In this document: in pieces, positions 1 through 54,725 of the stretch
How positions within the stretch are numbered: the first letter of the stretch is position 1
How the letters are laid out: each line of letters starts with the position of its first letter
Assembly: GCA_045537905.1 (NCBI GenBank)
Contig: JAZSQJ010000045.1
Span: forward strand, 1-63,803
DNA length: 63,803 nt
Direction: 5' to 3'
Source of the DNA: Eubacteriales bacterium
GTDB taxonomy: Bacteria > Bacillota > Clostridia > Oscillospirales > CAG-382
The notes under the pieces: generated by a model
Told to the model about the DNA's origin: nothing
Seen by the model: only the letters and a program-made list of their open reading frames with translations
Database searches by the model: none
Position numbers and translations under genes: made by a program

Positions 1-226
1 GAGTGCTGAGAAAGAGTGCAGGCAAGACGAACCGAGGCGATAACTGTAATACCACCCCACAAAAATATATTTTTGTGGGGACCCCGGAGTACTGTGAGCC
101 GAGGTTCGTTTTGAACGAAAAAACAAATATAATGTTGAAAATTCAGGGGAATTTTCCCTGAATTTTCTACTTTCGAATGAGTATATTTTATTCTTTTTCG
201 TGCTCTGTGCCTTTGTCAGCGGTCTG
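1..226 (+). repeat. Structured non-coding repeat element (MITE-like), 5' end truncated by the window edge; near-identical to 54452-54641
   Basis: GAGTGCTGAGAAAGAGTGCAGGCAAGACGAACCGAGGCGATAACTGTA...TTTGTCAGCGGTCTG aligns by eye with 54452-54641, apart from a 39-bp insert at 49-87 and a few substitutions. Confidence 0.9.
55..80. repeat. Perfect 26-bp palindrome (REP-like) nested in the repeat element
   Basis: CCCCACAAAAATA|TATTTTTGTGGGG followed by ACCCC; absent from the 54.4 kb copy. Confidence 0.85.
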
Positions 227-3170: not shown

Positions 3171-3409
3171 AACAATAATATATGCCGAAAAAATTTATTA
3201 TAAAAATTTTCTGTTTGTCCTTGAAAGCCACTGCTTAAGCGTTTGCGTATTTTGCGGTGTAAGTTCTTTTTTATAAGTTTTATATTAAAACAGGGCTGCC
3301 TGATGAGACAGCCCCAACTTCTTAAACGGTAAAAAACAAATTTTTTGCGGTCTGCGCTTTTGAGATGCCCGACACGAGCAAAGTGAGTGACGGGGTACTG
3401 TTACATCCC

Positions 3410-12386: not shown

Positions 12387-14408
12387 ATGGAAAAGATAAA
12401 TATAATAATTAACGGCGTTTCCCTTACCGGCGAAAAGGGGGAAACCATACTTCAAATCGCCACCCGCGGCGGCATAGAGATACCTACCCTCTGCCAGAGC
12501 GAGCTGGTTAAAAACTACGGTGCCTGCGGTCTTTGCGTGGTAGAGGCAAAGGGCAGCCCCAAGCTTATGCGTGCCTGCTCTACCGTTGCTCAGGACGGTA
12601 TGGAGATAGATACCGAGAGTGAGCGTGTAGTACGCTCCCGCCGTTTAGCGCTGGAGCTGCTTATGAGCGACCACGACGGTGACTGTAAGGGTCCCTGTAC
12701 CCTTAACTGTCCCGCCGGTACCGACTGTCAGGGCTACCTCAAGGCGATAGCCGAGGGCGACGATGCCAGGGCAGTAGAAATAATCAAGGAAAAGCTTCCT
12801 CTGCCTGCTTCTATCGGCAGAGTATGCCCTCACCCCTGTGAGACTGCTTGCCGCCGTCAGTACGTGGAGGAGCCTATATCCATAGCACAGCTTAAGGCGT
12901 TTGCGGCTGACCGTGTTCTTGCCGCAGGCGAAAAGGTTAAGGAAAGGGAAGCGGCAACAGGCAAGCGTGTTGCTATAGCAGGCGGTGGTCCTGCAGGTCT
13001 TACTGCCGCATACTTCCTCGCCCTTAAGGGTCACGAGGTTACTATATACGAGGGTATGCCCAAGGCAGGCGGTATGCTCCGCTACGGCATTCCCGAGTAC
13101 AGACTTCCCAAGGCAGTTCTTGATAAGGAAATCGCTCTTATCGAGCAGGCAGGCGTTACCATCAAATGCGGTGTCCGCATAGGCGAGGACGTCACCTTTG
13201 AGGAGCTTAAAGCAGGTAACGACGCCGTTATCGTTGCCATCGGTGCCTGGACCAGTATGAGCGCAGGCGTTGGCGAGGATTTGAAGGGCGTATACGGCGG
13301 TATCGACTTCTTGCGTTCTATCGCCACGGGCAAGCCTGTAAGCATTGGGGAAAAGGTTGTTATTATGGGCGGCGGCAATACCGCAATGGACGCTTGCCGC
13401 AGTGCCGTAAGACTGGGTGCCAAGGAGGTAACGGTGGTTTACCGCCGTACCGAAAAGGAAATGCCCGCAGAAAAGATTGAGATAGCCGAGGCAAAGGAGG
13501 AGGGAGTAAAGTTCCGCTTCCTTGTTAACCCCTGCGAGCTGGTAGGTGAAAAGGGCGTGCTTAAGTCTGTTAAGCTTCAGGTTATGGAGCTGGGCGAGCC
13601 TGACGCAGGCGGCAGAAGAAGCCCCGTACCCGTAGAGGGTAAGTTTGAATATATTGAGGCAGATAGCTTTATACAGGCTATCGGTCAAAAGGTTAACGTA
13701 AAGGGCTTTGAGGCTCTTGAGCTTAACCGCAGAGGCATTATTTCCGCCGACGAGTTTAACTTCCGCACCAATATAGAGGGCGTGTTTGCCGTGGGCGATG
13801 CTACCAACAAGGGTGCAAGCATTGCAATAGCCGCTATAGGCGAGGCAAACAAGGCGGCACTGGTGGTTGACGCTTACCTTAACGGCGTAGAGCTTTCCTA
13901 TAAGGCTCCCTACGTTTCCGAGCGTAAGGTAGAGGATATAGATTTTTCTGACAGGGAAAAGATGGCTCGTGTAGCTACACCCTGCCGTCCTGCTGAGGAA
14001 AGAAGAGGGGACTTCAAGGAGGTTAACCTTCCCCTTGACGAGTCTCTTGCCCGTGCAGAGGCAAAGCGTTGTCTTGAGTGCGGCTGCCACGATTACGGCG
14101 AGTGTAAGCTGGTTCGTTATTCCGACAGCTATCTCAGTGCAAAGCCCCGCTTTGAGGGTGATAAGCGTAGCTCCGAAAAGGACCTTGCCCTTAAGACGGT
14201 AGGCCGCAATAACGGTAAATGTATCCTTTGCGGTCTTTGCGTCCGTGTTTGTGACGAGGTTGTGGGCGCAGGTCTCCTCGGTTTGGTTGGCAGAGGCTTT
14301 ACTACCGTTATCAAGCCCGAGTTCAGAAGGGAAGAAGCAATTTCCATCTGCGCTACCTGCGGCAAGTGCGTAGAGCTTTGCCCCACAGGAGCCCTTAAAT
14401 TGATGTAA
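12387..14408 (+). CDS. HydA-N-terminus-like Fe-S protein with inserted GltD-like FAD/NADPH domain (NfnA/StnC-like BfuA); no H-cluster or Mo domain
   Basis: IPTLC/GACGLC [2Fe-2S]; GGGPAG and GGGNTAMD Rossmann motifs; YRR; ends after CILCGLC and CATCGKCVELCP. Confidence 0.8.
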   Translation: MEKINIIINGVSLTGEKGETILQIATRGGIEIPTLCQSELVKNYGACGLCVVEAKGSPKLMRACSTVAQDGMEIDTESERVVRSRRLALELLMSDHDGDCKGPCTLNCPAGTDCQGYLKAIAEGDDARAVEIIKEKLPLPASIGRVCPHPCETACRRQYVEEPISIAQLKAFAADRVLAAGEKVKEREAATGKRVAIAGGGPAGLTAAYFLALKGHEVTIYEGMPKAGGMLRYGIPEYRLPKAVLDKEIALIEQAGVTIKCGVRIGEDVTFEELKAGNDAVIVAIGAWTSMSAGVGEDLKGVYGGIDFLRSIATGKPVSIGEKVVIMGGGNTAMDACRSAVRLGAKEVTVVYRRTEKEMPAEKIEIAEAKEEGVKFRFLVNPCELVGEKGVLKSVKLQVMELGEPDAGGRRSPVPVEGKFEYIEADSFIQAIGQKVNVKGFEALELNRRGIISADEFNFRTNIEGVFAVGDATNKGASIAIAAIGEANKAALVVDAYLNGVELSYKAPYVSERKVEDIDFSDREKMARVATPCRPAEERRGDFKEVNLPLDESLARAEAKRCLECGCHDYGECKLVRYSDSYLSAKPRFEGDKRSSEKDLALKTVGRNNGKCILCGLCVRVCDEVVGAGLLGLVGRGFTTVIKPEFRREEAISICATCGKCVELCPTGALKLM

Positions 14409-14455
14409 AAATAGCCCCGACCGCAGAAAAAATACCCATAATTATATAAAAATTA

Positions 14456-14482
14456 AAAGTGGGCTGATTTACAGCCCACTTT
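14456..14482 (+). terminator. Intrinsic terminator after the Bfu operon
   Basis: AAAGTGGGCTG-ATTTA-CAGCCCACTTT. Confidence 0.6.
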
Positions 14483-51414: not shown

Positions 51415-51523
51415 ACATATCCTTTCAACATCCGTTTACTTAAAAGCCAACTTACCACAAATACATTATAACACATAGGAAAAAGTCAGGCAACAGTTTT
51501 TTTGCTGTTTTATGTAAAAAACT

Positions 51524-51825
51524 GCAAAAAAATATGAAATAAAAAAGGTCCGGCGTGGCACGTTGATGTGCCACGCCGTACTACTTCTTGTAACAATTAA
51601 TAATGATTTTTGCGGTCCGGCCTTTTTAATTCTGCGTAGGGAATAGGAAAAAATGGTTGGAACGGACGAACCTAGGCGAGAGCTGTACCTGGTACTGCGA
51701 GCCGACGGTTCGTTCGTAGCAAAAAAATATGAAATAAAAAAGGTCCGGCGTGGTACGTTGATGTGCCACGCCGGACTACTTCTTGTAACAATTAATGATG
51801 TTTTTTTGCGATCCGGCCTTTTTTT
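51524..51825 (+). repeat. Direct repeat of about 105 bp (51524-51627 and 51719-51825), each containing a long GC hairpin
   Basis: GCAAAAAAATATGAAATAAAAAAGGTCCGGCGTGG(C/T)ACGTTGATGTGCCACGCCG..CTACTTCTTGTAACAATTAAT..CCGGCCTTTTT occurs twice at a 195-bp period. Confidence 0.95.
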
Positions 51826-51836
51826 ACATTCCCTAC
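51636..51836 (+). repeat. Structured 201-bp element with 9-bp terminal inverted repeats; structural homologue of the 54418-54641 element
   Basis: GTAGGGAAT/ATTCCCTAC ends; contains the GACGAACC..GGCGA..TGTAC...GTACT..GAGCC..GGTTCGTT hairpin at 51662-51717. Confidence 0.7.
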
Positions 51837-52417
51837 ACGATACCGGTAACGAAAATCTCTACACCTATAAGTATCAAAATCACTCCGCCGAATATCTCCG
51901 CCTTGCCTGCAAAATGGTTACCAAACCTTTTGCCTATGTGTACCCCTGCAAAGCAGATAGCAAATGTAATTACAGCGATAATCAAGGCGCAGATAAGAGC
52001 CTCCTTAGTGTTGTGGTCGGCAATGGTAAAGCCAACGGAAAGGGCGTCTATAGAGGTGGCAAGCCCCTGTAACAGCAAAGCGCCTATACCGCCCGAGGAC
52101 TTTTCCTCTTCGCCGTGGCAGTGGTTGTGCTTTATACCGTCTGCCAGCATCTTAGCGCCTATGGCAAAAAGCAAAAGCAAAGCAATCCAGGGTATAAACC
52201 TTTCAAAGGCGGTAAAATACTCAAGCATAGTGTGTACGCACAGCCAACCGATAAGGGGCATCAATGCCTGAAAAAAGGCAAAGCAGGCGGCGGTAGACAA
52301 AACGCCCTTAGCCTTCATTTTTGGGTCGCTAAGTCCACGGACGAGAGAAACGGAAAAGGCGTCCATAGCAAGCCCTACGCCTAAAAGAATACAATTTGTA
52401 AAAAACACCGTAGTCAT
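51833..52417 (-). CDS. mntP: Manganese efflux pump MntP
   Basis: GLAMDAFSVS, FQALMP.IG, ATSIDAL.VG, AEIFGG. Confidence 0.9.
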   Translation of the reverse strand: MTTVFFTNCILLGVGLAMDAFSVSLVRGLSDPKMKAKGVLSTAACFAFFQALMPLIGWLCVHTMLEYFTAFERFIPWIALLLLFAIGAKMLADGIKHNHCHGEEEKSSGGIGALLLQGLATSIDALSVGFTIADHNTKEALICALIIAVITFAICFAGVHIGKRFGNHFAGKAEIFGGVILILIGVEIFVTGIV

Positions 52418-54335: not shown

Positions 54336-54417
54336 AAGAAAATAAAGCAAAACAAAAACGGGCGTTCGCCCGATACCGTTAAGCTAAGAAAAAACCGGGT
54401 TCAGAAATGAGCCCGGT

Positions 54418-54641
54418 CAGCTTGATGACAAACCTTGTCATCAAGTTGGCAGAGTGCTGAGAAAGAGTGCAGGCAAGACGAACCGAGGCGATAACTGTAC
54501 TAAGTACTGTGAGCCGAGGTTCGTTTTGAACGAAAAAACAAATATAAAGTAGAAAATTCAGGAAAATTTTTCCTGAATTTTCTACTTTAGAATGAGTATA
54601 TTTTATTCTTTTTCGTGCTCTGTGCCTTTGTCAGCGGTCTG
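54418..54641 (+). mobile_element. Complete 224-bp MITE-like structured repeat with imperfect terminal inverted repeats
   Basis: CAGCTTGATGACAAA...TTTGTCAGCGGTCTG ends; second copy at 1-226; flanked on both sides by hairpins. Mobility is inferred, not shown. Confidence 0.65.
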
Positions 54642-54725
54642 ACCATCGGCATCCGATGGTTTTTTGTTTTTGGGATACCCAAGAAGCGGTTTGGCTTCAT
54701 GGGTGATTGCTTCAAATTAATGGCA

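Follow-up and report, generated by a model that had tools for sequence, protein, structure and literature searches.

A covarying three-way-junction fold shared by two related families of mobile repeats in a gut Eubacteriales genome

Short bacterial repeats of the Correia, ERIC, RUP, and BOX kinds are intergenic and modular or mosaic, reach high copy numbers, end in terminal inverted repeats, and can fold when transcribed; they mainly form a simple long hairpin, with duplications of 2 to 10 bp. Class C group II introns have terminator stem-loops as neighbors of their insertion sites, and 5′-truncated copies of them are numerous. For insertion sequences (ISs) that belong to the IS1182 family, the direct repeats in ISfinder range from 0 to 60 bp. 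Structured RNAs of mobile elements, among them omega RNAs and bridge RNAs, have repeatedly proved to be working parts of transposition. Here we describe two repeat families from contig JAZSQJ010000045.1 of the Eubacteriales bacterium assembly GCA_045537905.1. The stretch of DNA analyzed (the window) is this entire contig of 63,803 bases, C10 of the 89 contigs in a genome (G000) of 1.88 Mb with a completeness of 96%. Type B is the kind of element found at position 51636 (about 195 nt), and type A is the kind found at 54418 (224 nt).

IS1272, a member of the IS1182 family, is described as targeting inverted repeats of 22 to 30 bp and terminator hairpins, and as deleting or replacing the hairpin with no duplication (PMC4923244; PMC5678879). 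The attC sites of integrons conserve a single-strand fold over sequence and have one functional strand (PMC2727003). Types A and B are related families with a shared core of about 150 nt, comprising a hairpin (P2), the junction, a second arm (P3), and the inner part of an outer stem (P1). The account that we favor, and consider probably correct, is that they are two related families of structured mobile repeats, type A moving on IS1182-family ends and type B being linked to a single-stranded form.

The shared fold, its strand, and its distribution

The type B consensus, obtained with RNAalifold from a MAFFT alignment of 26 copies from the same genome, is a three-way junction of 41 pairs in which P1 is formed in two segments and P3 is an A-rich/T-rich stem with a variable distal hairpin. 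A covariance model built from this alignment only (R1) scores the type B unit of the window at 164.9 bits on the + strand (E = 6.5e-37) and at 24.9 bits on the − strand, and its alignment to that unit bears out the layout of P1, P2, and P3 that had been proposed in an earlier, sequence-only reading of the window. The same model, which contains no type A copy, matches both type A copies of the window at full length on the + strand (54453 to 54638, 77.4 bits, E = 3e-16; 2 to 223, 53.9 bits, E = 1e-10), confirming the architecture that had been assigned to both element types. Furthermore, a type B sequence profile (nhmmer) aligns to type A copies from position 13 or 27 to position 181. A pattern for the core, GACGAACCNNGGCGANANCTGTA, has three matches in the window (at 26, 51665, and 54477), all of them on the + strand, with 0 expected from 100 shuffles.

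Pairing was compared with column shuffles (n = 500 for the own-genome set) and with slid partners. Among the 26 own-genome copies, 97.1% of the cells are paired, compared with 84.5% in the shuffles and 39 to 51% with slid partners (39 to 52% across all of the type B alignments). Changes on both sides are seen at 23 of the 41 pairs, compared with 13.7 ± 1.5 in the shuffles, none of which reaches 23, and 5 to 8 with slid partners; compensatory change affects 9 of the 16 pairs of helices 1 and 2 and 6 of the 9 pairs of helix 5. In 34 type B copies of other species and genera, placed in an alignment that was fitted to R1 and therefore favors its structure, 97.5% of the cells are paired and 34 of the 41 pairs covary (21.1 ± 1.9 in shuffles and 14 to 18 with slid partners). 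Type A copies from congeners are 97.0% paired, with 17 covarying pairs versus 3.7. G·U cells far outnumber A·C cells, by 61 to 7 in the own-genome alignment and by 105 to 9 in the wider one, which places the fold on the + strand, as had been read from the G-T pairs in the window; at some positions, most copies across genera have the wobble pair. The strong covariation relative to the controls, together with the conserved G·U pairs on one strand, supports the earlier suggestion that the fold is structure selected.

Conservation in P2 involves the apical stem and a purine-rich asymmetric loop beneath it, and residues at the junction are conserved as well. The stem reads GCTGTAC/GTACTGC here and GGCGTAC/GTACGNC in other genera. 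By inspection of the alignment, the loop has 3 to 4 nt (GAA, GAC, GAGA, or GATA) opposite 2 to 4 nt (GA, AA, or GAGA) and does not fit a 5-by-2 layout; the kink-turn consensus is a 3-nt bulge followed by tandem G·A/A·G pairs. The GA..GA internal loop of P2, which the sequence-only reading had called invariant, is instead specific to a subfamily, and elsewhere this segment is a continuous covarying helix. The P2 loop also accepts an extra hairpin of 41 nt, as in the copy at 1 to 226; that copy, which had been listed as a second one of the 54418 kind, is real and on the + strand, but it is cut by the contig start as well as interrupted by this hairpin. The extra hairpin belongs to a small repeat family of its own (CACCCC-stem-GGGGACCCC(G), with variable covarying stems; window 49 to 89; e.g., G000:C68:17779-17901), for which there are 42 strict matches, 27 within P2 loops of either type and 15 elsewhere, with three in tandem on C68.

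As the earlier failure to recognize a named RNA family would predict, Rfam 15 gave 0 matches at gathering score over the whole window on both strands. An E-value scan of positions 51450 to 51900 returned 29 matches, every one well short of its gathering score, the best at about 25 bits or less versus gathering scores of at least 40. A hammerhead or other ribozyme in P2 or the junction was rejected, with no Rfam match and the core motifs absent, as was a reading of the same parts as group II intron domain V; pairing with the 5′ strand accounts for the likeness to GAGCCG...ACGGTTC in P2. A non-exhaustive full-text search found no description of the fold, and blastn at distant settings with each element type found no match in phage and plasmid collections.

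With up to one mismatch allowed, the core pattern has 86 matches in the genome (46 forward and 40 reverse), many of them within about 150 nt of contig ends, indicating that the repeats break the assembly. Type A accounts for about 75 nearly identical copies (46 near full length by blastn, plus many cut by contig ends), and type B accounts for about 40 copies that are complete or nearly so (30 full units in addition to partial ones, 71 to 90% identical). Further copies beyond those seen in the window thus exist, to a total of about 115, so that one structured module makes up more than 1% of a 1.9-Mb gut genome and breaks its assembly at dozens of places. In four public gut DNA runs, the summed contig depth of type A is 337 to 609, versus 0.8 to 7.4 for its flanks, and public contigs break at 54417/54418 and at 54641/54642. 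No contig bridging an empty site was found in these runs, the joints found being ones that join repeat copies.

The strict core pattern is present in 11 of 12 other genomes of the same genus and in none of 28 genomes of other genera. Full-length matches to R1 were searched for in 61 genomes from 15 genera of the same bacterial family and were found in 20 of the genomes and 9 of the genera; among close relatives, the number of type B copies ranges from 0 to more than 40. Type B is best explained as the older and more diverse lineage; its presence across the family is patchy. The conserved P2 motif occurs at no fewer than 122 loci of Clostridia metagenome-assembled genomes (MAGs), a lower bound. 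These MAGs have labels such as Acutalibacteraceae, Oscillospiraceae, Ruminococcus, and Clostridia, and most are of ruminant-gut origin; the element may have gone unnoticed because these host groups are uncultured. The motif is also found in a few MAGs labeled Helicobacteraceae or Fibrobacter (L146, L163, L170, and L183), for which misbinning or transfer is possible. Some copies are mosaics of a type A 5′ half and a B-like 3′ half, and there is a variant family with other 5′ ends (G000:C72:1-300, C40:35-142, C48:14215-14321, C8:7900-8100, and C74:4630-5030).

Type A and its IS1182-family ends

Multiple alignment places the borders of type A at CAGCTTGATG...CAGCGGTCTG. The two types have different terminal inverted repeats, as the sequence-only reading held, and those of type A match the ends of a known IS family, the kind of match that this reading had named as one that would take away the novelty. 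The genome has a single IS1182-family gene (DDE_Tnp_1_6) at the end of contig C75, encoding a 235-aa fragment that scores 190 bits over profile positions 286 to 488 (PF13751, 90.4 bits). This IS ends in ...GGGTTTGTCAGTAATCTG, directly followed by a hairpin, and its right inverted repeat is ...TTTGTCAGTAATCTG. PF13751 is present in 6 of the 13 genomes of the genus. A complete IS in congener L031 encodes a 492-aa IS1182-family transposase (457.4 bits for NCBIfam NF033551, the IS1182 family transposase, whose cut-off is 270 bits); its left inverted repeat, CAGACCGCTGACAAAG, equals the reverse-complemented 3′ end of type A at 16 of 16 positions, and its right end is the same as that of the own-genome copy. 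The 5′ end of type A shares CAGnnnnnTGACAAA. A second subtype of the IS has a 483-aa transposase and ends of CAGACTGTCGAAAAAG, and in L027 it is flanked by a duplicated 24-bp hairpin. The L026 transposase scores 405.6 bits for NF033551, and the IS copies in L026, L028, and L031 have unlike flanks.

Only the terminal 16 nt or so of type A are common with the IS. The interior is homologous to type B, and this B-like core rules out the interior as a deletion derivative of the IS. [quoted passage not shown] In 30 of the 42 complete type A copies away from contig ends, a whole stem-loop of 17 to 37 bp is duplicated at both flanks with at most two mismatches. The duplicated stem-loop is different at every locus, and most of these stem-loops resemble intrinsic terminators. 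One type A copy is found in inverted orientation within a type B P3 hairpin, with a 30-bp hairpin duplicated on either side. A non-exhaustive full-text search found no account of an IS1182 MITE that duplicates hairpins.

What is observed comprises the ends, the duplication, and the transposase family; the chemistry that follows is our proposal. An IS1182-family DDE transposase acting in trans would bind the CAGnnnnnTGACAAA ends (CAG...TGACAAA) and would recognize palindromes able to form a hairpin or cruciform, mostly terminators. The two strands would be cut at opposite bases of the stem, and repair would then duplicate the whole palindrome. After insertion, the upstream gene would meet a hairpin without a T-run, then the element, and then a hairpin with a T-run, and the element would often come to lie in a 3′ untranslated region. 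We rate type A as a further case of a known class, set apart by its unusual duplication. Such a transposase would be a natural, sequence-independent one that picks targets by the shape of the DNA and makes a second copy of the entire terminator, re-wiring the 3′ ends of many genes at once. The rule suggested for the little-studied IS1182 family is a cut at the two bases of the stem, staggered here and blunt in IS1272.

Several other loci touch on type A and its targets. In L026 (G001:C19), an IS1182-family IS at 464 to 2226 (483-aa transposase) has a type A copy abutting its right end, and the outer hairpins are unlike. The same 34-bp hairpin is found at the 3′ flank of a type A copy (G000:C69:35755-36015) and at the IS1182 end (C75:20456-20500), suggesting that C69 and C75 join via a composite or rearranged insertion. 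Bidirectional terminator-like hairpins of the form GGGGCTGTAAAAAAC-loop-GTTTTTTACAGCCCC occur at 19 loci of G000 (e.g., C66:147 and C85:8377) and are frequent type A targets. The arms GGGGCTGTAAAAAAC and GTTTTTTACAGCCCC resemble the type B outer stem, and at C80 and C85 such a hairpin is found just upstream of a type B unit, with arm variants that look swapped between the hairpin and the unit.

Type B and the role of the fold

Type B ends in an imperfect inverted repeat of about 25 nt, GGGGATAGGAAAAAATGG.../...CCTTTTTTTACATCCCC, which forms P1. No target duplication was found in 22 copies with readable flanks, and the TA seen on both sides of a few copies is indistinguishable from one more base pair. 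In the congeners G009 and G003, the genes that flank the window unit lie 31 to 58 nt apart with no unit between them, so the unit was either gained here or lost there; the empty-site sequences are too diverged to place the type B borders. In other genera, the neighbors are unrelated housekeeping genes (infB-rbfA, groEL, guaB, and rny-ymdB), and no protein gene common to the flanks was found among 34 neighboring proteins. That the element is a nonautonomous mobile unit, as first suggested from the window, is upheld by the roughly 86 core copies, the insertion of type A inside type B, the type A target duplications, the sites empty of type B in two congeners, and the lack of a shared flanking protein.

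Type B units occur singly or in head-to-tail arrays of two or three, and very frequently a 5′-truncated copy lies directly upstream of a full one. This is also the arrangement in the window, where the element at 51636 had been taken for a lone unit: the sequence at 51524 to 51627 is 94.3% identical to that at 51719 to 51822 over 105 nt (blastn), corresponds to nhmmer model positions 82 to 182, and contains a hairpin followed by a T-run that is terminator-like on the − strand. The partial-plus-full arrangement recurs at two loci of other genomes. About 20 type B fragments in the own genome retain the 3′ end and vary in where they begin. The 13 solo 5′ ends are accounted for by contig ends (6), type A insertions into P3 (5), and a variant 3′ end missed by the pattern (2). 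Type A has a similar but weaker truncation skew. In front of many type B units lie one to three copies of a roughly 30-nt module that ends in GCACCCCGATTAGCACCCAC (e.g., G000:C60:4100-4260, C48, C53, and C69), with a “hairpin + CCCTAC” module farther upstream; a 20-mer of the GCACCCCGATTAGCACCCAC module has 27 loose matches, some of them chance ones in coding sequence.

The search for a partner protein of type B found none in the own genome or in the 61-genome sample. The own genome, within its completeness of 96%, has 0 matches to PF01797, PF07282, and PF02371 (Y1_Tnp, the TnpB zinc ribbon, and the IS110 Transposase_20) and none to DUF772, and an all-against-all blastp of its multicopy open reading frames (ORFs) revealed no transposase-like family. 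With TnpB, TnpA (Y1), and the IS110 transposase not found, guide-RNA elements of the IS200/IS605 or IS110 kind were rejected. Its only reverse transcriptase (RT; RVT_1) gene (G000:C85:68739-69941, 400 aa) falls below every NCBIfam RT cut-off, the best being group II RT/maturase (99.5 versus 300 bits) and then Drt3a. This gene adjoins no repeat copy, on which ground a retron or other RT-linked noncoding RNA was rejected, and no RT was found among the 34 neighboring proteins in other genera. A gene resembling the REP-associated tyrosine transposases (RAYTs) of repetitive extragenic palindromic (REP) sequences (G000:C22:3880-4431, − strand) is split by a type A copy (C22:4054-4276) at an in-frame hairpin, GGGCGACCAATGGTCGCCC, which is duplicated. 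An IS630-type MITE was rejected as well, since DDE_3 is confined to 1 of the 13 genus genomes, the inverted repeat there (TACATCGTTAATATTAAAAC) does not resemble the type B ends, and TA flanks only some copies. An IS630-family IS in L091 (G011:C1, 858 to 2098), 90 nt from a type B unit, has inverted repeats of TACATCGTTAATATTAAAAC and a transposase that is frameshifted or made up of two ORFs.

For type B, we infer that the fold is maintained on account of a single-stranded + form, either RNA or single-stranded DNA, which the element adopts in passing or in which it acts. This form would be recognized by copying machinery, with the invariant top of P2 and the junction residues as a possible recognition site, and as a side effect the units may supply hairpin-plus-T-tract terminators between genes. 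Selection on one strand regardless of the orientation of the neighboring genes is best fitted, with modest confidence, by a single-stranded stage in propagation, and the one-sided truncation would favor the same stage.

Several observations weigh against the combined account of types A and B. Clean duplication is absent from 12 of the 42 type A copies, including the one at 54418 in the window, where the left hairpin (54391 to 54417) is unlike the right one, so that this copy lacks an intact target duplication. Some of the 12 have diverged hairpins and others have swapped flanks, such as a C20 left flank equal to a C3 right flank, which points to recombination between type A copies. The transposase gene of the own genome is incomplete, and since IS1272 makes no duplication, the staggered cut is a conjecture. 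The alignments A2 and A3 were both fitted to the model and lean toward its structure. With type B present in 20 of the 61 genomes, its observed overlap with other genes is close to that expected, at 7 versus 5.9 for the IS1182 transposase, 9 versus 8.2 for Y1_Tnp, and 6 versus 5.9 for the RAYT-like gene. Orthologs of the own RT occur in 6 of the 61 genomes, only 2 of which carry type B, and there are genomes with 21 to 28 type B copies that have none of these four proteins. Co-occurrence thus lends none of the four any support as the type B partner. These counts take no account of relatedness or MAG incompleteness, and because relatives are not independent and MAGs are incomplete, they are compatible with a partner.

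The main rival to a propagation role for the fold is that the repeats are cis elements useful to the host, of the REP/BIME, ERIC, or Correia kind, whose stems, once transcribed, would act as terminators or shield the 3′ ends of mRNAs, with the fold selected within mRNAs. Copies are intergenic and often lie right after stop codons; in the window, the 3′ strand of P1 abuts the stop codon (51833 to 51835) of a minus-strand 194-aa ORF. The P3 hairpin with its T-run is terminator-like on both strands, fragments consisting of the hairpin and the 3′ module are common while 5′ fragments are not, and in G009, which lacks the unit, an ordinary terminator hairpin occupies the corresponding position. However, type B is orientation neutral (6 sense, 9 antisense, 4 convergent, and 3 divergent), and yet the G·U pairs are on the same strand of the element everywhere. 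Type A copies are read into on their + strand by a gene in 26 of 35 informative cases, but 13 of the 26 are uninformative convergent pairs; on these counts, which rest on a rough ORF map (89% coding), neither type has a clear orientation bias. A terminator, moreover, needs no junction of 41 pairs with loop residues that are invariant across genera, and the range in copy number among close relatives also speaks against a host function. We therefore consider this explanation unlikely.

A doubtful alternative for type B is that the units are REPIN- or BIME-like and are moved as single-stranded DNA by a RAYT of the HUH Y1 kind. The absence of a target duplication and the strand-specific imperfect hairpins would fit, as would the GTAG at both inverted ends of the window unit (GTAGGGAAT ... 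ATTCCCTAC), but GTAG is not constant at type B ends and the units are about five times longer than known REPs. RAYT-like genes do occur in the genus. The ORF scores 64.8 bits for NF047646, below the cut-off of 80 bits, and is short; the own-genome gene is the one broken by type A, and the sole adjacency is in G005, where an intact relative is found upstream of a type B unit, at a distance of 104 nt. The overlap of type B with the RAYT-like and Y1_Tnp genes, given above, shows no co-occurrence. REP-like “hairpin + CTAC” modules precede many type B copies, but about 20 such short modules elsewhere translate to a piece of RAYT-like peptide (G.SRTPVPT), so they are possibly gene debris.

It is improbable, in our estimation, that type B is copied through RNA in the manner of a short interspersed nuclear element (SINE), with an RT acting in trans that recognizes the 3′ part and P2 and primes at nicks near hairpins. 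The one-sided truncation, in which about 20 copies keep the 3′ end and no 5′-only copy is unexplained, is what such copying would leave, and the partial-plus-full arrangement in two other genomes, the conserved G·U pairs, the lack of orientation bias, and the head-to-tail arrays are in keeping with it. However, no RT is linked to the copies, the orthologs of the sole RVT_1 gene accompany type B in only 2 of 6 genomes, and retroposons have no need of inverted-repeat ends. The units have no A-rich tail and no promoter-like site in front of them; before the window unit, the only such matches belong to the neighboring gene on the opposite strand, and in other genera a terminator often abuts the type B 5′ end. 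A family of genes for trans-acting small RNAs in many diverged copies is more improbable still: the covariation is as strong as that of curated RNA families and the junction and loop residues are kept across genera, but there is no conserved promoter or synteny, the closest relatives have empty sites, copy number varies from 0 to more than 40, and copies are truncated, tandem, nested, and contig breaking.

A bolder reading of type B is that it is a new nonautonomous class for which a single-stranded template, anchored by the 3′ end, is copied by a SINE-like route through RNA or a rolling-circle route through single-stranded DNA, with the three-way junction, above all the invariant top of P2 and the junction residues, as a handle for an enzyme of the host or of a mobile element. 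It would account for the strand-specific wobbles, the absent target duplication, the head-to-tail arrays, and the excess of 5′- over 3′-truncated copies (about 20 to 0), and we offer it only as a long shot.

Features of the window and comparison with known systems

The features of the window are collected in Table 1.

Table 1. Type A and type B repeats of the window, their parts, and adjoining hairpins
Feature	Coordinates	Strand	Basis or remark
Type B unit, full length	51636..51836	+	nhmmer model positions 1-192; R1
P1 5′ strand (GGGAA..AAAA.GGTTGGA), also the left terminal inverted repeat of type B	51639..51661	+	R1 alignment
P2 hairpin common to types A and B	51662..51717	+	Basal stem covaries (helices 3 and 4)
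P2 apical stem, GCTGTAC-CTG-GTACTGC, with T·T mismatch, above the purine-rich internal loop	within 51662..51717	+	
P3	51719..51809	+	Closing stem 51719-51727 with 51801-51809; distal variable hairpin 51742-51777, terminator-like
P1 3′ strand (TCCGGCC.TTTT..TTCCC), the right terminal inverted repeat of type B	51812..51833	+	R1 alignment
5′-truncated type B copy, reduced to P3 and the P1 3′ strand, adjoining the full unit on its upstream side	51524..51627	+	
Type A, IS1182-derived MITE with B-like core, 224 nt, ends CAG...CTG	54418..54641	+	
Type A left end, inverted repeat CAGCTTGATGACAAA in a hairpin of its own	54418..54448	+	Motif CAGnnnnnTGACAAA
P2 of type A	54474..54528	+	Core pattern and R1
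Type A right end, CTTTGTCAGCGGTCTG	54626..54641	+	Reverse complement equals the left inverted repeat of the L031 IS (16/16)
Terminator-like hairpin left of type A	54391..54417	.	Unlike the right one
Terminator-like hairpin with T-run right of type A	54642..54665	+	
Second type A copy, 5′ end cut by contig start	1..226	+	41-nt mini-hairpin at 49-89 in P2 loop; R1
Solo type B 3′ fragment: hairpin, AT-rich stretch, TTTTTTGCGGTCTGCGCTTTT	3290..3361	+	Weak nhmmer match (positions 109-181, E = 3e-4)
Solo type B 3′ fragment: hairpin, AT-rich stretch, TGCGGTCGGGGCTATTTTTACATCA	14394..14470	−	Regular expression and reading; below nhmmer reach

Among described systems, integron attC sites are unlike the present repeats in being simple imperfect hairpins beside cassettes that are acted on by the integron integrase; no such context was found here, with no search aimed at an integrase. 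Class C group II introns differ in that positions 51450 to 51900 gave no Rfam intron match at an E value of up to 10, and the units are of about 195 nt with no intron-encoded protein. REPs and REPINs are alike in being abundant extragenic palindromes with strand-specific imperfect hairpins, no target duplication, and a tendency to cluster, and a single Y1 gene is present in some genomes of the genus. They are unlike type B in that its units are of about 195 nt and branched, GTAG is inconsistent, and Y1 does not co-occur with it in the 61 genomes.

The closest likeness of type A is to IS1272/TnSha1 of staphylococci: the transposase is of the same family (NF033551), and the target is chosen by structure and cut at the stem base. 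What differs here is that the whole hairpin is duplicated, in 30 of the 42 type A copies and at the full IS of L027, and that the element is a 224-nt noncoding derivative with an unrelated structured core. Where the Correia, ERIC, RUP, and BOX repeats mainly form a simple long hairpin, the present ones have a branched junction that covaries in all arms and has conserved wobbles, and the palindromic duplication of 17 to 37 bp sets type A apart from them. The fold covaries as well as curated RNA families do while being absent from Rfam and without a partner found, and it persists across genera within a selfish repeat. Overall, we rate the shared covarying three-way junction as an unreported variant among structured bacterial repeats.

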